From Escherichia coli (GTDB lineage: Bacteria > Pseudomonadota > Gammaproteobacteria > Enterobacterales > Enterobacteriaceae), in NCBI RefSeq assembly GCF_051903065.1, contig NZ_CP178438.1: 64,000 bases of DNA; one strand, given 5' to 3'. Positions 3,800-19,415 of this stretch are shown piece by piece. The stretch's first letter is position 1. Each line of letters starts with the position of its first letter. The notes under the pieces are model-generated. The model was given only the letters and a program-made list of their open reading frames with translations. It did no database searches and was not told the origin of the DNA. Made by a program: the position numbers and the translations under genes.

Positions 3800-5035
3800 A
3801 TGCTGCAACAGGTTCCAACGCGTGCTTTTCATGTGATGGCGAAACCGAGCGGTTCCGATTGTAATCTGAACTGTGACTACTGTTTTTATCTCGAAAAACA
3901 ATCCCTTTACCGCGAAAAGCCAGTCACGCATATGGACGATGACACGCTGGAAGCGTATGTCCGTCACTATATCACTGCCAGCGAACCGCAAAACGAAGTG
4001 GCTTTTACCTGGCAGGGCGGCGAACCAACGTTACTCGGGCTGGATTTTTACCGCCGTGCCGTAAAGTTACAGGCGAAATACGGTGCTGGCAGGAAGATAA
4101 GTAACAGCTTCCAGACTAACGGCGTGCTGCTCGATGATAAATGGTGTGCATTTCTGGCAGAAAATCATTTTCTTGTTGGGTTATCGCTGGACGGTCCGGC
4201 TGAGATCCACAATCAATATCGCGTGACCAAAGGTGGCAGACCAACGCATAAGCTGGTGATGCGTGCCCTGACGCTGCTGCAAAAACATCATGTCGACTAT
4301 AACGTGCTGGTCTGCGTCAACCGCACCAGCGCGCAGCAACCGTTGCAGGTTTATGATTTTTTGTGCGATGCGGGAGTCGAATTCATCCAGTTTATTCCGG
4401 TGGTCGAGCGTCTGGCTGATGAAACAGCTGCCCGCGATGGACTGAAATTGCATGCGCCTGGTGATATTCAGGGGGAACTGACGGAATGGTCGGTGCGCCC
4501 CGATGAATTTGGTGAATTTCTGGTGGCGATATTCGACCACTGGATTAAACGCGACGTCGGCAAGATTTTCGTGATGAATATCGAATGGGCGTTTGCCAAT
4601 TTTGTCGGTGCGCCGGGTGCGGTTTGCCATCATCAGCCAACCTGTGGGCGCTCGGTGATTGTTGAGCACAATGGCGACGTTTACGCCTGCGATCACTATG
4701 TTTATCCGCAATATCGACTGGGGAATATGCACCAGCAAACAATTGCAGAAATGATCGATTCCCCGCAACAGCAGGTGTTTGGTGAAGATAAATTTAAGCA
4801 ATTACCGGCGCAGTGTCGCAGTTGTAACGTGTTAAAAGCATGTTGGGGAGGCTGCCCGAAACACCGCTTCATGCTCGATGCCAGCGGCAAACCGGGACTG
4901 AATTATTTGTGTGCCGGGTATCAGCGTTATTTCCGCCATCTACCGCCATATCTTAAAGCAATGGCTGATTTGCTGGCGCACGGTCGCCCGGCCAGCGACA
5001 TTATGCATGCGCATTTGCTGGTGGTGAGTAAGTAA
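3800..5035 (+). CDS. aslB: Radical-SAM anaerobic sulfatase-maturating enzyme homologue, 411 aa
   Basis: CxxxCxxC radical-SAM motif (CNLNCDYC) near the N-terminus and C-terminal Cys clusters; start trimmed from the track ORF (3770) to the ATG giving MLQQVPTRAF; lies next to sulfatase aslA. Confidence 0.8.
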   Translation: MLQQVPTRAFHVMAKPSGSDCNLNCDYCFYLEKQSLYREKPVTHMDDDTLEAYVRHYITASEPQNEVAFTWQGGEPTLLGLDFYRRAVKLQAKYGAGRKISNSFQTNGVLLDDKWCAFLAENHFLVGLSLDGPAEIHNQYRVTKGGRPTHKLVMRALTLLQKHHVDYNVLVCVNRTSAQQPLQVYDFLCDAGVEFIQFIPVVERLADETAARDGLKLHAPGDIQGELTEWSVRPDEFGEFLVAIFDHWIKRDVGKIFVMNIEWAFANFVGAPGAVCHHQPTCGRSVIVEHNGDVYACDHYVYPQYRLGNMHQQTIAEMIDSPQQQVFGEDKFKQLPAQCRSCNVLKACWGGCPKHRFMLDASGKPGLNYLCAGYQRYFRHLPPYLKAMADLLAHGRPASDIMHAHLLVVSK

Positions 5036-5060
5036 AAAAGCGGCCATTTTGTGGCCGCCT

Positions 5061-5177
<117 letters not shown>

Positions 5178-5202
5178 GGCAGATCTCAGCGATAGCGCCG
5201 GC

Positions 5203-6858
5203 TTAATCAGATTTAATCTGCGCGCGTGGTGGATACTTTTTCAGGATCTCCATATACGCGTGCATTTCGGTCTGTAGCGGTACACCCATCGGAATATGGC
5301 GCACGCCGATAGAGTCGCTCTCCTGCGGATCGGTGTACAGGTTAAACACCGACGATCCGGCTGTTTGCATTACTGTGCCGGTGAATCCACCCTGATATCC
5401 GCTCTGGGTATAAGCGTAAGGTTGCTGAATCAGGACGTGATACTTGAATTCATCCATACGCACAGCAGCGAGTTTACCGTTGAGGAAGTAGTGCTCGGCC
5501 TTACGGTTAGACTGACCATTTGTTCCCAGGAAGAAAGATGTCTGGTCCACACCATCGATAAAGGTGGTTTTCGGCACTAAATTCGCCACTTTCGCGCCAG
5601 GATGCCCTGCCAGATCCAGCGCGGTAGGGAAGAGATCTGCCAGATCGACAATACCGTCAGATTTACGCGGTTGGATCATCCCTTTCCAGTACACGAAAGT
5701 CGGAACGCGAACGCCGCCTTCCCAGGTAGATCCTTTCGCACCACGGAACGGTGTGCGTCCGTGCGGCGGTACTTCGGCTTCCGGTCCGTTATCGGAGGTA
5801 AAGACAATCAGCGTGTTATCAAGCTGACCGTTTTTCTCTAGTGCTTTATACAGATTAGCGAACACATCGTTCATTTCCACCATGCAGTCGCCATACGAGG
5901 TGCGTGCCGGAGAGCTACCCGCATATTTGGCGTTCGGGTAGTTATCGAAGTGACAGCCGCGAGTGCCGTAATAGAGGAAGAAAGGCTTCTCACTCTTCGC
6001 CATCTTGTCGAGGAACTTAACGCCATATTCCATCCAGCGTTGATCCAGATCTTCCATATATTTCGGCGTAATGTCGGCAATGGCCTGTTGTTCGCCGCCG
6101 CGCACCGCATGAACGTCATCTTTGCTAAATGGTAATTGCTTGATGTATTCAGAACGGTCCGGACTCAGGGCCACTTCCGGATTGACGTGAACGTCGCGCC
6201 ATTCGGTGTACATATCAGACACCGAGTTAAAGCCACGGAAATCATCAAAGCCAACGTTCTGCGGCTGCGACTCTTTGTTTTCCCCCATATGCCATTTCCC
6301 GATGGCCTGAGTGACGTAGCCCTGATCGTGCAGCAACTGCGGCAGCGTGGTTAACCCTTGCAGCCCGCCCGGTTGCCCGTACATTGGCGGCATCAGAATG
6401 CCGTGGTGGATGGAGTATTGTCCGGTGAGAATGGTGGCGCGGGTTGGGGAAGAGCTTGGTTGAGAATACGCCGAAGTTAAAATCAGCCCCTGGCTGGCAA
6501 CGGCGTCGATATCTGGTGTAGGGTTACCCACCGCCACGCCGCCACCGTTAAAACCGACGTCCATCCAGCCCACATCGTCCAGCAAGAAAACAACCACATT
6601 CGGTTTCTTACCGGTTTTTTTCTCAAGTTCTGCCAGCTTCTGCTGGGTTTCTTTATCCTGCGCCGGATGCTGCATTACTGGCATCATGTTGTCGGCAATA
6701 GTGGTCGCCGGTTTAACCAGATACTGGTTTGGGTGATCGTATCCGGCAAAGCCTTTGCGTGCGGTGGCAGTTGAAGGGGTATCTGCTGCGCTGGCCATGA
6801 GAGGAAGAGCGGCGGCGACAGCAACAACAAGAAGTTTGGGTGAAAACGAAAATTCCAT
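5203..6858 (-). CDS. aslA: Arylsulfatase-like protein with signal peptide, 551 aa; Ser-type sulfatase signature
   Basis: N-terminal signal peptide ([15 protein letters not shown]); sulfatase signature S-x-P-x-R-xxx-L-T-G present as [11 protein letters not shown]. Confidence 0.85.
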
Positions 6859-7282
6859 GCAAAATGCTCCGGTTTCATGTCATCAAAATGATGACGTAAT
6901 TAAGCATTGATAATTGAGATCCCTCTCCCTGACAGGATGATTACATAAATAATAGTGACAAAAATAAATTATTTATTTATCCAGAAAATGAATTGGAAAA
7001 TCAGGAGAGCGTTTCCAATCCTACCTCTGGCGCAGTTGATATGTAAGGCAGGTTTATTATATCGCGTTGATTATTGATGCTGTTTTTAGTTTTAACGGCA
7101 ATTAATATATGCGTTATTAATTGAATGAATTTTATCATTCATAATAAGTATGTGTAGGATCAAGCTCAGGTTAAATATTCACTCAGGAAGTTATTACTCA
7201 GGAAGCCAAGAGGATTACAGAATTATCTCATAACAAGTGTTAAGGGATGTTATTTCCCGATTCTCTGTGGCATAATAAACGA

Positions 7283-15040: not shown

Positions 15041-15466
15041 TTAACCTACATACCTCGTCCCATTCCAACGCAAGATTGTATCCTCGTCGCATAAAAGGTT
15101 GTGTACGCCATGATTCTTTTCTTTCATCAGGCTGATTTTGCTACAAAAATAATCAATGTTAATTTTGGAGTTATCCGGGGTCATAATACTGCAAGCCATA
15201 GTTGGTGCGTCACTCGCGGTATATCCACAATCGTCTTTCCCGCAGGCAGCGGGAGGCGTGGAGGGTGAATACGTGCAGTTAAGCGTTTCGGAAATGCCAT
15301 CATCGTTAATGTCGAGGGGACGGCTAATCTCATCGCTGTCAGTGCCTAATGTGGTTGCATCCAGGATGACGTTTGGTTTTTGTATCTCGCTTGTGGCCGC
15401 GTAATTGAAGCTGCTTGCGGCCATTATGCCTAGAGCTATGCCAATCCGTAAGGCTATTTTTTGCAT
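15041..15466 (-). CDS. Small secreted cysteine-rich hypothetical protein, 141 aa (island gene A)
   Basis: ATG with GAGGA RBS upstream; N-terminal signal peptide (ALGIMAASSFNYAA); six Cys in the mature part; start overlaps the stop of gene B; AT-rich. Confidence 0.6.
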   Translation of the reverse strand: MQKIALRIGIALGIMAASSFNYAATSEIQKPNVILDATTLGTDSDEISRPLDINDDGISETLNCTYSPSTPPAACGKDDCGYTASDAPTMACSIMTPDNSKINIDYFCSKISLMKEKNHGVHNLLCDEDTILRWNGTRYVG

Positions 15467-16749
15467 CCTGGTTCCTCTGTAATAATCATAATGTCTCTGT
15501 TTTGAACTTCACGCACATTCTCTTCTCTGACACGAGTTTTCGCCGGACAGGGGGATGGCGTAATCCTGACCTCTGTATCGGTCCAGGTATAAACATTGCG
15601 ATCGTCATAAGCGAAGCGATCGTTTTTAATTAGCGGGCCGTTAGTTGGAATAATTTGCACGCTCTTTGACCGTAATTGGCGGATAAAGTAAACATGTTGT
15701 TTGCCGCCATTAAATGAGTTATCAATGACCAGGTCTGGCGAATCCAGCGGAATTATTTCAAGCTGGTCTTCACCAAAAGTCGATAATTTTGTTACATACA
15801 GACGATCTTTATACTGCGCAATATTGCCAGTAATCAGATGAAATTGTTCAGGTTCAATATCCGGTAGGTCTATCCACTTGCTCCACTGACGGTCGGGCGA
15901 GAGCTGTTTACGCCAGCGAACGCGACTTTCCCCCACTTCAAAAGAGACGTCATCATCTACGGGTATCGCTTTGCCAGATAATTGCCCAAAGGGATAACGA
16001 TGCAGACCATTGTTGTCGCGAAAAACCAGCAGTGAATGAGGTATCCAGCGAATTATCTCAAATGAGTCTGCATTCGCCGTAAGGTGAACGCCATTTAAAT
16101 AAATATTCTGCCCACTGCGGATAAGCAGATCATTGGAATACAAATTTCTGTTTACACTCATAAGACGTGGATTAATACCCCACCATCTTTTTTCTAATAC
16201 AGTAACATTACTGCTGCTCCCCTGACGTCGACCGGACAAATAGAGATTTTTACTATCCACCAGCGTGGTAGAGTTACCTTCGATAGCTTTTAGTGTCGCC
16301 AGATCAACACGTGACGCGCCGCTATTACTTTCGGTGCGCTGTCCATCAAAATAGAGGCTATATTTATCGACCGCGAAGCGGCCCATAGCCTGAAAGCTGG
16401 CAATATCGACAGTGGGTATTCCCGGTGGATTGCTAACGATTTTGCCACGCCAGAGAATAACGCGGCCGTCTGTCACCCAGTGGTATTCCTCATTTTTTAT
16501 GCTTATTTCATCGGTGGGTATATAGCCTTCCACTAACTCCCGCTCCCCGGATATATTTGTCACAAGGCGCAAATCGGCTCTGTTCATCTTCGGAAATTGG
16601 GCAATGATTTTCTCATCCTCCCCATAACCTTTACCGTAAGACATGACACCGTGATCATTGTAATAGTCGAACCCTATGGCCTGTACAGCAGGTGTCAGAA
16701 ATGTGTGCCCCAACAGGATGAGTGCAACTGTGATTATTTGACCATTCAT
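15454..16749 (-). CDS. Secreted repeat protein, DKNYY-like family, 431 aa (island gene B)
   Basis: Signal peptide; repeated motifs DKYSLYFDG, SKNLYLSG, GQNIYLNG, ANADSFEII; paralogous to the upstream 502-aa gene; ATGA overlap with that gene's stop. Confidence 0.8.
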   Translation of the reverse strand: MNGQIITVALILLGHTFLTPAVQAIGFDYYNDHGVMSYGKGYGEDEKIIAQFPKMNRADLRLVTNISGERELVEGYIPTDEISIKNEEYHWVTDGRVILWRGKIVSNPPGIPTVDIASFQAMGRFAVDKYSLYFDGQRTESNSGASRVDLATLKAIEGNSTTLVDSKNLYLSGRRQGSSSNVTVLEKRWWGINPRLMSVNRNLYSNDLLIRSGQNIYLNGVHLTANADSFEIIRWIPHSLLVFRDNNGLHRYPFGQLSGKAIPVDDDVSFEVGESRVRWRKQLSPDRQWSKWIDLPDIEPEQFHLITGNIAQYKDRLYVTKLSTFGEDQLEIIPLDSPDLVIDNSFNGGKQHVYFIRQLRSKSVQIIPTNGPLIKNDRFAYDDRNVYTWTDTEVRITPSPCPAKTRVREENVREVQNRDIMIITEEPGCKK

Positions 16750-18254
16750 TTTGTCGCCTCATTGCGCGGGGCAGGAATAAATTCGCCGTCATCGGTAATT
16801 TTTCCGTCCAGATATCCCGTTTTGTAATTTACCCCGTAGCCATATCCCGAATGTTGTTCCTTCCAGATTAAGCGAACTTGTTTCGGATCAGCGGTGCGGT
16901 ATCGCCAGAGCTGCGCGCCATCAAAGCTGTAAACGTAGCGGTTATCGCGGGCATACCATCTGCGCAAAAAGGGATGGTCATTAAGATGGGCTTCGCGTTC
17001 ATCCGGAGAACGGTTATCCAGTAAGATCAGCGGTCCGTCAGATTCAAACACGTGTAAACCGGAATGGTATGGCCACCCTTCGGCACGCGTAAGTAAATAG
17101 CCGTGGCGTTTCCCGGCGTTGAAACGTTTGTTGATAATAAGATTGGGATCATCAAGTTTCACGATCTCCAGCTTGCGGTCACCAGACTCTGTTTCGATGA
17201 TGGTATAAAGCGAGTCCTGATACTGTGCGACAGCATCACTGATGGGGTGAAACTGTTCCGGATCGAGTCCGGGTAATTCTTCCTGTTTACAGTCAGGCCC
17301 CTGACGCCAGAACACTTTCTTTTCCAGCAGAGAAAAATCCAGACAGTGCTTTGTTAAATCTTCATCCCACGCCAGATTTTCCTTGTCGAGGACTTTACGC
17401 TGCAGCCCGTTTTTATCACGCCAGGTCAAGAGTGAGCCGGGCATCCAGCGCACGACGGAAAAAGTGTCCGGGTCGGCATCAAGCTGTTCGCCGTTGATCA
17501 GGATTTTGGTTCTTGTACGAGCCAGGGTATCCCAGGGGCCAAATGGCATAGCCACACAGGGATTAAACGCGGTAGAAAACTTTCCTCTTTGATCCCATGA
17601 CTTTTGTGCCAGCACACGGAAACTCTCGGGGTCAGCGAGGCGATGCCCATCGACATATAAGAAATTAGCGTCACGTAATATCAGCCCCAGTAAGTCAGGA
17701 TCCCAGGGAGGCCGGAATTCCACCTGATGCAGTGTTTTGATATCTACGCTATTTCCCCCGCCATTGTCATCGGTGCGCTTGCCTTCGAAATAGAGACTGT
17801 GTTTATCTGCGGCAAAATCACCCCATGCCTTGAACGAGGCGACATCGACGGGAGGTTTGTCTGGCGGGTTTTGCACAACTTCACCCGCGTAGAGGATATT
17901 GCGGCCATCGCTATGCCAGGAGTAATGAGGATACCAGGCTTGTGCGCCTTCATAGAGGTAGTCGGTTGTTAGATCAGTCAGAGGTGGTTCTTTATTCCAT
18001 TCATCTTGTGTTGTTGGGTCTATTAATAAATTGGGTAAACGGCGCAAACTCTTGTAATTCACGTCAGGTAGAGAAAGATTTGTTTCTTTATAAGGGCGCA
18101 GGTACACCACGCCTTTTCCCTGTTTCTGGTAAATATTATGTTCAGGTGCATCAAGCCGACATCCCCATGCCGACGATAAGAACAATGAACAAGCCAACAA
18201 ACAAACCACATTGCGATAGTGCATAAAGCCATCCTGGCGCGAGGTGTTGATCAC
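16746..18254 (-). CDS. Secreted repeat protein, DKNYY-like family, 502 aa as called (island gene C)
   Basis: GTG at 18254, or ATG at 18224 giving MHYRNVVCLLACSLFLSSAWG... signal peptide; motifs DKHSLYFEG, DANFLYVDG, ADPESFRVL, ADPDTFSVV; similar to gene B (e.g. NPPDKPPVDVASFKAWGDFAADKHSLYFEGKRT vs NPPGIPTVDIASFQAMGRFAVDKYSLYFDGQRT). Confidence 0.8.
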   Translation of the reverse strand: MINTSRQDGFMHYRNVVCLLACSLFLSSAWGCRLDAPEHNIYQKQGKGVVYLRPYKETNLSLPDVNYKSLRRLPNLLIDPTTQDEWNKEPPLTDLTTDYLYEGAQAWYPHYSWHSDGRNILYAGEVVQNPPDKPPVDVASFKAWGDFAADKHSLYFEGKRTDDNGGGNSVDIKTLHQVEFRPPWDPDLLGLILRDANFLYVDGHRLADPESFRVLAQKSWDQRGKFSTAFNPCVAMPFGPWDTLARTRTKILINGEQLDADPDTFSVVRWMPGSLLTWRDKNGLQRKVLDKENLAWDEDLTKHCLDFSLLEKKVFWRQGPDCKQEELPGLDPEQFHPISDAVAQYQDSLYTIIETESGDRKLEIVKLDDPNLIINKRFNAGKRHGYLLTRAEGWPYHSGLHVFESDGPLILLDNRSPDEREAHLNDHPFLRRWYARDNRYVYSFDGAQLWRYRTADPKQVRLIWKEQHSGYGYGVNYKTGYLDGKITDDGEFIPAPRNEATK

Positions 18255-18333
18255 GATACTGCCAGCAGAACATAAATCCTCACACGTAAGCGTAATTCTC
18301 GCGGCAAATCGTCACTTTTCAGAATCCATAAAG
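18163..18333. repeat. Copy 1 of a 171-bp direct repeat (promoter/leader/signal-peptide module), covering the 5' end of gene C
   Basis: About 93% identical to 19245-19415 at a constant offset of 1082 bp (ccccatgccgacgataa...cacttttcaga). Confidence 0.9.
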
Positions 18334-18590
18334 GTCATTGCTATTTTCTGATAGTTGCTGGGGTAAACGTGATGTTTTCATTCACGATATAAATACGAGG
18401 TACTGCGCCATGGTGTGACTGATCACGTTAAAATGTGCCGGGTTGACGCCGGGAAGGGGTTCAACATGCGACTCTGCCCCCGTTGCCTACTTTATTGTCT
18501 TTCGCGAGTTGTACCCATGTTCCACCACTGGTATCTAACATTCTCCACATTATTACGCTTTCTGCCGAATGTGATTTTTATAGAAATCTA

Positions 18591-19145
18591 TCAATTCATT
18601 TTCCCTGTGCCATAAATTTTATCCTTCACATCCTGCCGAACGCGGGTCTTGTACCCCCCGTTGTGAAGATCTTCATACGGAGAAAAAGAATCTTTACTCC
18701 ACCCCAGCAGCACTTTATCGCCAGGCATAAAATGCACATGCAGAAAATCTTCTCCCCATTCTCTTTTGGGGAGAGGTAACGTCATATTCCGTTTCTCCAG
18801 ACGCATTCCAGCATTATACTGTGTACGAGTAGTACTTAATGTCCAGATAACCTCTGCAGTATCCCCACTGACATCACCACAACAGGTTGTTGAACCTCCA
18901 CCATTTGCAAAAGCATTCGCGCCCGCCACGCCGTTAACACTGAATCCCAGTATCGGACGGTCAATTTCACTGTGGATTTCCAGAATCACTCCACCTCTTG
19001 GACCTCCCCATACTGCCTGCCCTATATTCCACAACACGACCAGTACTGGAACGACAATTAACGTCCGCCATACCCAGCGCCCCCAGCGGGCATAACCGCG
19101 CGTAAGCTTTTGGTCAAATTTTTCCAGTTGGGTAAATAGCCCCAT
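18591..19145 (-). CDS. DUF3304-like membrane-anchored protein, 184 aa (island gene D)
   Basis: ATG with AGGGA RBS upstream; N-terminal TM segment (WRTLIVVPVLVVLWNIG); motifs GFSVNGVAGANAFANGGGSTTCCGD and LHVHFMPGDKVLLGW resemble DUF3304 proteins as I recall them. Confidence 0.6.
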   Translation of the reverse strand: MGLFTQLEKFDQKLTRGYARWGRWVWRTLIVVPVLVVLWNIGQAVWGGPRGGVILEIHSEIDRPILGFSVNGVAGANAFANGGGSTTCCGDVSGDTAEVIWTLSTTRTQYNAGMRLEKRNMTLPLPKREWGEDFLHVHFMPGDKVLLGWSKDSFSPYEDLHNGGYKTRVRQDVKDKIYGTGKMN

Positions 19146-19244
19146 CAGATTTTATTCCCTCTTATCACCAGGTTGGCAAAGTTGTATGTCACTAGCGACT
19201 AAGGTCAGACAACGAAATTGCATGGTGCGCCACTCTATTAAAAG

Positions 19245-19415
19245 CCCCATGCCGACGATAAAAACAACGAACAAGCCAACAAACAAACCACATTGCGATA
19301 GTGCATAAAGCCATCCTGGCGCGAGGTGTTGATCACGAAACTGCCAGCAGAACATAAATCCTCACGAGTAAGCGTTATACTCGCAGCATTTCCTCACTTT
19401 TCAGACTTCATAAAG
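19245..19415. repeat. Copy 2 of the 171-bp direct repeat, upstream of gene D; holds a 32-codon stub of the gene C signal peptide
   Basis: Minus-strand reading from GTG at 19336 gives VINTSRQDGFMHYRNVVCLLACSLFLSSAWGF then a stop at 19238-19240. Confidence 0.9.

Follow-up and report, generated by a model that had tools for sequence, protein, structure and literature searches.

Why should an Escherichia coli chromosome keep a gene of the kind that protects against a toxin of a type VI secretion system (T6SS), with neither the toxin nor the secretion system beside it? The question is raised by an open reading frame (ORF) on the minus strand of a 64,000-nt stretch of E. coli contig NZ_CP178438.1 (hereafter, the window). 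The ORF occupies positions 18591–19145, starts with ATG and encodes a 184-aa DUF3304 protein (WP_000522556.1). Our answer, to which we give a probability of roughly 0.75, is that it is an orphan immunity gene belonging to the DUF3304 (Tli1) family, functional and kept without its effector. A preliminary description made from the letters alone had delimited the same ORF, which exists as described, and had quoted two peptides, both of which lie within its translation. The RefSeq label on the identical sequence in E. coli ECNB21-M121 is "DUF3304 domain-containing protein"; a domain-based annotation thus exists already, and immunity genes without their effectors have been described before, but we found no earlier report of the locus itself. 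Neither the WP_ accessions of these proteins nor an orphan Tli1 at cyaY–lptM was found mentioned in the literature.

The gene order in the window is cyaA–cyaY–[variable interval]–lptM (yifL)–dapF–yigA–xerC–yigB–uvrD. The variable interval between cyaY and lptM (about 15041–19415) contains four minus-strand ORFs of 141, 431, 502, and 184 aa, the last being the gene in question. As the preliminary description had stated, T6SS and effector genes are missing from the vicinity: no T6SS core gene and no full-length effector gene was found within the 64 kb, and only a 29-codon remnant of tle1 lies directly downstream. Genome-wide absence was tested on E. coli ECNB21-M121 (NZ_CP083585.1), which is 100% identical to the window. 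This genome has one DUF3304 locus, and its amiC–metV–mltA (tRNA-Met) site, which holds a T6SS island in other strains, is empty. The window contains no effector gene, and neither does NZ_CP083585.1 as judged by the DUF3304-linked test.

Where the gene came from can be read from E. coli loci in which its relatives still have their neighbors. The window protein is 91% identical to WP_023156020.1 of strain KW21 and 84% identical to Salmonella proteins, and the C-terminal tails are closely similar. At the nucleotide level, 18584–19223 aligns with 5761–6400 of the KW21 locus (L003) and 18462–19223 with 5001–5764 of the cS76a locus (L034), in both cases at 91.4% identity. The collinear stretch spans the last 35 nt of a DUF4123 adaptor gene, a spacer with its ribosome-binding region, the whole immunity gene, a second spacer, and the opening 29 codons of tle1. 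The spacer between adaptor and immunity gene (19146–19188, minus strand) is collinear with 6323–6365 of L003 and with L034 and includes the ribosome-binding region GAGGGA; because of this collinearity, the start codon, the ribosome-binding region, and the 78 nt upstream are native to the module. The DUF4123 remnant itself (19189–19245, minus strand) was recognized by its matches to L003, where the coding sequence (CDS) runs from 6366 to 7187, and consists of the last 35 nt and of a 28-nt internal fragment (19218–19245) that matches the interior of the gene at L003 6585–6612. On the other side, the native spacer between immunity gene and tle1 (18551–18590, minus strand, collinear with L034) leads into the tle1 remnant (18462–18550, minus strand), identified by comparison with cS76a and by a tblastn match to the N-terminus of Salmonella Tle1. 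It reads MWRMLDTSGGTWVQLAKDNKVGNGGRVAC and then ends in a stop, the N-terminus of the cS76a Tle1 being MWGMLDTGGGIRAQLAEDNKVGNCGREWH.

By this collinearity, a part of roughly 660 nt of the inserted cassette is a piece cut from a VgrG–DUF4123–DUF3304–Tle1 module. The 91% identity to module genes, the adaptor and tle1 remnants that flank the gene, and the absence of a module from the source genome bear out the preliminary description in calling it an orphan immunity gene. A further 128 nt inside the cassette (18334–18461, no strand assigned) are of unexplained origin; they were found in orphan loci only, and searches with blastn-short and tblastx against the T6SS modules and the ancestral locus gave chance-level matches only.

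The preliminary description had noted a resemblance to DUF3304, and the comparison with PF11745 agrees with it. The match is weak (residues 63–145, independent E-value 2.4e-4, 21.9 bits), but of 20 close relatives 19 have a PF11745 match at E<=1e-3, and a profile–profile alignment (hhalign) of the subfamily with ten lipoprotein-type DUF3304 proteins gave a probability of 99.8% (E 9e-28, residues 47–150). The core motifs DRPI..FSVNG..GGG..CC are present, with C88 and C89 nearly invariant in 95 sequences, and the hallmark motifs, including the vicinal cysteines, are common to the subfamily and the lipoprotein-type DUF3304 proteins. By these profile comparisons, membership in the wider DUF3304 family is secure, while the NCBIfam Tli1a family (NF053804) was not reached (20.1 bits vs. 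a cut-off of 110). DUF2931, the domain of the Tli1 of enteroaggregative E. coli (EAEC), is absent from the window protein, for which the Pfam scan returned DUF3304 only.

An AlphaFold2 model built from the 95-sequence alignment (mean predicted local distance difference test, pLDDT, of 85) shows a helix from residue 2 to 46, followed by a seven-strand beta-sandwich. The DUF3304 beta-sandwich domain corresponds to codons 48–150 (18696–19004, minus strand), an assignment supported by the hhalign match over residues 47–150; it contains the C88/C89 motif, residues 53 to 150 hold its modeled strands, mostly at pLDDT >90, and it is predicted to be periplasmic. A sequence search of solved structures with the family profile gave nothing relevant, and Foldseek of the model against the PDB returned only weak and uninformative matches to transthyretin-like beta-sandwiches (best E 2.4e-3, TM-scores 0.31/0.46). 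The C-terminal extension of EAEC VgrG1 that binds the EAEC Tle1 also includes a transthyretin-like domain (PMC6730261), although the resemblance of DUF3304 to it is too weak to interpret.

How common the orphan is was estimated in 5426 complete E. coli genomes. The orphan cassette (>=80% covered, 90–100% identity) was found in 1116 of them (20.6%). The matching effectors are much rarer: a full-length tle1 of the cS76a type was found in 67 genomes and one of the KW21 type in 42, that is, in about 109 of the 5426, and a further module, of the ST131 type, is present in about 506–509. With the cS76a-type query, 704 genomes gave only the stump of ~90 nt. Judged from the additional match sites with the module as query, module and orphan occur together in at most 28 genomes vs. 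about 114 expected if they were independent (1116 x 555 / 5426), a negative association computed without correction for phylogeny. All four additional orphan loci that were fetched lie next to lptM.

The gene is also well preserved. It is annotated as an intact CDS in 26 of the 26 orphan loci listed, and the six alleles sampled (five distinct) are all intact 184-aa ORFs. The ratio of nonsynonymous to synonymous substitutions (dN/dS) was 0.05–0.28 in pairwise comparisons among orphan alleles (dS 0.09–0.31) and 0.05–0.24 between orphan alleles and module genes. These ratios show a gene kept intact and under purifying selection while both flanking module genes were destroyed. The alleles fall into two classes that differ mainly at residues 104–121, with STTRTQYNAG…M in the window and DMTHEQYLKG…K in the other class, to which the KW21 and cS76a module genes belong. 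One orphan allele of this second class (L038) is 2 residues from the cS76a module protein. The variable patch (window 18780–18836, codons 104–122) may determine specificity or be a mosaic produced by recombination.

Outside the orphan site, genes of this subfamily are linked to Tle1-like effectors. The survey consisted of a DUF3304 scan, with one genome per species, followed by tblastn with Tle1, DUF4123, and VgrG queries. In all 15 non-E. coli loci with downstream flank, one to five tandem DUF3304 genes stand directly upstream of a Tle1-like gene, and most of these arrays come after VgrG and DUF4123; the DUF3304 query was matched there from residue 1 (residue 5 in L028), and the anchor region was thus included. 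In a sixteenth locus (L029), it is the Tle1-like gene that lies upstream, about 3.4 kb from the DUF3304 gene. Some downstream flank without an effector was found at one locus only, a 99%-identical 4-kb contig labeled as a Collinsella metagenome-assembled genome (MAG), which is evidently E. coli DNA. Three loci (L018, L021, and L027) stop at the contig edge just past DUF3304, and several other contigs were too short to judge. Two of the records look like binning contamination: JAIJJM010000270.1 (L008), the Collinsella MAG, carries the E. coli orphan gene at 99%, and JAHEOE010000120.1 (L029), a Candidatus Paceibacterota MAG, carries a Morganella-like DUF3304 and Tle1.

Within E. coli, the KW21 module (L003) has the order VgrG–DUF4123–DUF3304–DUF3304 pseudogene–DUF2235 (648 aa)–VgrG, and the cS76a module (L034) the order VgrG–DUF4123–DUF3304–Tle1-like (650 aa). 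The arrangement in a Salmonella enterica contig is VgrG–DUF4123–DUF3304–DUF3304–Tle1 (655 aa). In another E. coli locus (L002), the DUF3304 gene lies between the DUF4123 adaptor gene and a Tle1-domain effector gene, in a T6SS cluster by mltA–metV. This locus comes from NZ_OZ369162.1, a 786-kb record labeled "plasmid 2" that has genes of the core chromosome (mltA, tcdA, and three tRNA-Met genes) and the T6SS island, and it is probably a mislabeled chromosome fragment. Its tssM (ImcF-related) gene is split by ISEc12; insertion sequence-mediated T6SS loss in multidrug-resistant E. coli lineages is the subject of a separate study (PMC10711316).

That DUF3304 proteins act as immunity proteins has been shown experimentally in three species. 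In Pseudomonas aeruginosa the protein is an outer-membrane lipoprotein that protects against Tle1 (PMC13133936); in Klebsiella pneumoniae it is likewise a Tle1 immunity protein, with four tandem copies upstream of tle1 (PMC5649205); and in Vibrio cholerae it is encoded upstream of tleV1 (PMC6691524). For the Vibrio protein no signal peptide was predicted, and in the authors' words its "transport mechanism remains unknown" (PMC6691524).

The effectors linked to the window subfamily differ from the canonical Tle1 in their active-site motifs. In 19 of the 19 Tle1-like proteins compared (those encoded at L002:13062-14930, L003:2959-4905, and L034:3142-5091 and those of L004 and L010–L030), G-[FY]-D-x-G replaces the canonical G-F-S-R-G (Tle1 structures 4o5p and 9j3f), and P-G-C-[S/A]-[E/D]-D-[V/I]-G-G-G stands for P-G-V-H-S-D-V-G-G-G, with P-G-S in L016. 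The Asp motif (FDCS) is retained, and conserved Cys residues lie near the changed motifs. Since the catalytic Ser and His are replaced, "phospholipase" is a name given to the cognate toxin by homology. These motif changes suggest that the subfamily-linked effectors may be a distinct class with different chemistry. Between KW21 and cS76a, the immunity proteins are 8 residues apart and the adjacent Tle1-like effectors only 67% identical, a contrast that points to one of two things: an immunity protein of broad recognition, or modules that have recombined internally in the recent past.

The N-terminus of the window protein sets it apart from the lipoprotein-type members of the family. Codons 1–27 (19065–19145, minus strand) encode a conserved, positively charged stretch (6 K/R vs. 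2 D/E) predicted to be cytoplasmic. It is followed by a single hydrophobic helix, codons 28–47 (19005–19064, minus strand), which was recognized by hydropathy and in the AlphaFold2 helix and which we read as a signal anchor without a lipobox. The best 19-residue hydropathy window is 29–47 (LIVVPVLVVLWNIGQAVWG; Kyte–Doolittle mean 1.9), and the helix is therefore placed at about 28–47. The only cysteines of the protein are C88 and C89; with none before C88, a lipobox is not possible. The preliminary description had likewise proposed a cytoplasmic stretch and a transmembrane helix in place of a lipobox signal peptide, in agreement with these predictions. Its statement that DUF3304 proteins are usually lipoproteins stands for the Pseudomonas-type members, but fails for this subfamily, a large one in the enterobacteria, and for the majority of the closer representative clusters. 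When 1.8 billion cluster representatives were searched with a profile, 103 clusters were found; of those that are full-length, near relatives mostly belong to the anchor type and the lipobox forms stand farther away.

The same N-terminus recurs throughout the subfamily. An alignment of 20 relatives from Escherichia, Salmonella, Citrobacter, Hafnia, Cronobacter, Serratia, Leclercia, Yersinia, Enterobacter, Pantoea, Buttiauxella, and others gave the common pattern MGxF..LEKxD..RGYARWGKWxW, then a hydrophobic helix, then GPPxG. Over the 20 sequences, D11 and W24 are invariant, Y18, R20, W21, G22, and W26 are nearly so, the net charge of the N-terminal stretch is +2 to +5, and none has a lipobox. 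The T6SS-cluster paralog by mltA–metV (L002), 69% identical overall, is nearly identical over residues 1–27. Judged from this distribution, which covers relatives from at least 12 Enterobacterales genera, nearly all of whose genes stand immediately upstream of one for a Tle1-like effector, the anchor N-terminus is ancestral to the subfamily of the window protein and not remodeled.

The arrival of the cassette at its present site can be followed from a 171-nt direct repeat whose copies, 18163–18333 and 19245–19415, are 92% identical. Copy 1 (minus strand), identified by alignment with E. coli UTME-3 and E. albertii, comprises 80 nt upstream and the first 30 codons of the 502-aa gene of the interval (16746–18254, minus strand). 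This gene encodes a lipoprotein with a weak DKNYY Pfam match, lies outside the cassette, and is the ancestral occupant of the lptM–cyaY interval. Copy 2 (minus strand) holds the ancestral lptM-side upstream region and a truncated, 32-codon DKNYY-like leader; it follows the ancestral sequence collinearly, is broken at the codon for the lipobox Cys, and has two stops after 32 codons. E. coli UTME-3 has no DUF3304 gene and one repeat copy, and the difference is exactly 911 nt (18334–19244) plus one repeat copy. In Salmonella enterica and E. albertii, orthologs of the DKNYY-like gene fill the lptM–cyaY interval and no DUF3304 gene is present there, from which it follows that the DKNYY-like gene was there first and the immunity cassette came later.

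The resident part of the interval (15041–18254, minus strand) contains three secreted or lipoprotein genes of 141, 431, and 502 aa, the larger two being paralogs, 37% identical, with weak DKNYY repeat matches. The DKNYY-like locus is variable: it is one gene of 670–685 aa in Salmonella, E. albertii, and some E. coli, two genes here, and a pseudogene stump in E. coli W. A literature search for "DKNYY" gave a single matching paper, unrelated by its title. We considered whether the DKNYY-like genes might themselves be immunity genes and the interval an "immunity island", and rejected the idea, as they have no homologs in the T6SS loci examined and are ancestral residents of the interval. The promoter and terminator scan gave one terminator-like hairpin inside the CDS of the DUF3304 gene, which was discounted.

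Together, these observations are consistent with the following course of events. An ancestor of this E. coli lineage would have acquired the roughly 660-nt module piece, made up of the adaptor tail, the intact immunity gene, and the effector head. This piece and the 128 nt would then have been inserted upstream of the resident DKNYY-like gene between lptM and cyaY, an insertion that probably duplicated the 171 nt of its upstream region and leader; the effector would have been lost and the immunity gene kept. The duplicated upstream region (repeat copy 2, 19245–19415) would probably supply transcription into the orphan gene. Its product is predicted to be a single-pass inner-membrane protein, N-in/C-out, with the beta-sandwich domain in the periplasm. 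Under attack, this domain would bind and neutralize, at the membrane, a Tle1-like toxin injected by the T6SS of rival Enterobacteriaceae, such as Salmonella or E. coli equipped with a KW21- or cS76a-type effector. A cell without a weapon of this kind would thereby be protected.

Several points weigh against a functional orphan. A consensus scan of the gene's strand upstream of the gene gave no sigma-70 promoter-like site, and family placement by curated models is poor, with a weak Pfam score (21.9 bits) and an NCBIfam Tli1a score far under the cut-off (20 vs. 110 bits). The shortfall of genomes with both module and orphan carries no phylogenetic correction. The window allele differs at residues 104–121 from the module-linked proteins, a difference that may leave it mismatched in specificity to the known E. 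coli effectors, and with the canonical Ser and His of Tle1 missing from the linked effectors, both their toxin activity and their being the target of neutralization are assigned by homology. Some of these points would suit a silent relic, left over from a decayed module, unexpressed or non-functional, and carried by descent: besides the missing promoter-like site, both flanking module genes are reduced to fragments. A relic of this kind, however, would hardly have kept an intact ORF in all sampled alleles and in the 26 listed orphan loci, nor dN/dS of 0.05–0.28 despite dS up to 0.31, and the native ribosome-binding region is kept, with the duplicated resident upstream region in front of the gene. 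We consider it quite improbable. Even less probable, to the point of being very unlikely, is that the gene was co-opted with the neighboring DKNYY-like genes for a housekeeping or envelope role unrelated to T6SS toxins. It is on the same strand, directly upstream of these genes and cyaY, and has the duplicated upstream region in common with them. Yet the DKNYY-like gene occupies the site without DUF3304 in Salmonella, E. albertii, and E. coli UTME-3, DUF3304 adjoins different forms of it, and no DKNYY-like homolog occurs in the T6SS loci examined.

The remaining alternatives concern the N-terminus. The preliminary description had supposed that the 5' end was remodeled by the repeat, i.e., that a lipoprotein-type DUF3304 gene had its 5' end exchanged for a signal anchor in a repeat-mediated rearrangement. 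The gene is indeed flanked by the 171-nt direct repeat, but it stops 100 nt short of the ATG, on the upstream side; the CDS from its 5' end, the ATG, and the 78 nt upstream are collinear (91%) with live modules, and effector-linked homologs in at least 12 genera have the same N-terminus. These comparisons refute this part of the preliminary description. A more serious proposal is that the hydrophobic N-terminal segment serves as a Sec signal peptide, with an n-region of unusual length, and is cleaved off to leave a mature protein soluble in the periplasm. Small residues after the hydrophobic core (…NIGQA followed by VWGG here, …VWA followed by A/S-VWGPP in relatives) would fit a signal peptidase I site. 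Nevertheless, the 27-residue n-region is better conserved than the hydrophobic core, which is unusual for a segment to be discarded, and the strong conservation of residues 11–26 argues for one that is retained. AlphaFold2 models one continuous helix over residues 2–46, and the V. cholerae DUF3304 immunity protein, likened to this one by description only, has no SignalP-5 signal peptide (PMC6691524). Cleavage is therefore, in our judgment, unlikely, though it is an alternative to be taken seriously, and an uncleaved anchor is the preferred topology.

Seen against known systems, the functional orphan immunity gene is closest to the proteins of the metV–mltA modules, WP_023156020.1 (KW21), WP_000522561.1 (cS76a), and WP_000522562.1 (ST131-type), which belong to the same subfamily and have the same anchor and domain. 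Identity to the window protein is 91% for KW21 and 69% for the ST131-type, and those of KW21 and cS76a are also 184 aa long, with a similar C-terminal tail. Unlike them, encoded between DUF4123 and Tle1-like genes in a T6SS cluster, the window gene stands alone at cyaY–lptM with stumps for neighbors. No experimental test of the DUF3304 proteins of these modules was found in the literature. With Tli1a of P. aeruginosa (PA3291), the window protein shares the DUF3304 beta-sandwich and a predicted periplasm-facing immunity role against a DUF2235/Tle1 effector (PMC13133936). Tli1a, however, is an outer-membrane lipoprotein encoded downstream of tle1, whereas the window protein has no lipobox, is predicted to be anchored in the inner membrane, and belongs to a subfamily whose module order places immunity upstream of the effector.

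In this order the subfamily resembles TliV1a (V. cholerae Aux 5) and Tli1KP (K. pneumoniae HS11286), protective DUF3304 genes that lie, often in tandem, upstream of a lipase-like effector (PMC6691524, PMC5649205). TliV1a also has no predicted signal peptide, and both were likened to the window protein by description only; Tle1KP keeps the canonical Ser-Asp-His triad, which the effectors linked to the window subfamily do not. The Tli1 of EAEC (EC042_4535) shares the name and the role of Tle1 immunity in E. coli, but it comes from the unrelated DUF2931 family, as an outer-membrane lipoprotein whose gene lies downstream of tle1 (10.1101/2024.03.05.583533).

The likeness to orphan immunity genes is of another kind. 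Such genes are known from the orphan immunity arrays of V. cholerae and the acquired interbacterial defence clusters of Bacteroidales. Like them, the window gene is kept without its effector and is commoner in the population than the matching toxin. It differs in standing alone at a fixed place in the chromosome, away from T6SS clusters and recombinase-associated arrays, and in that the stumps of both neighbors are still recognizable.

A broader interpretation can be put forward only tentatively, as possible but doubtful. Signal-anchored DUF3304 proteins may form a distinct inner-membrane immunity class paired with the Tle1-like clade of replaced Ser and His; in that case the toxin would be something other than a classical serine phospholipase, the conserved cytoplasmic motif might have a function of its own, and the orphan, present in a fifth of E. 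coli, might record strong and recurrent T6SS attack by other Enterobacteriaceae. At the strength of the main interpretation, about 20% of sequenced E. coli would carry an antidote, and the T6SS toxin that it counters could be delivered by about 2% only. With the antidote at a fixed chromosomal site and the scars of excision around it, the locus would offer a clean example, open to testing, of a gut commensal or pathogen armed for defence and not for offence. For the family, it points to a large enterobacterial Tli1 branch anchored by a predicted uncleaved N-terminal helix rather than by lipid, a mode of anchoring that may explain how the validated DUF3304 immunity protein of Vibrio does without a predicted signal peptide, and to a clade of Tle1-like effectors with non-canonical active-site residues.

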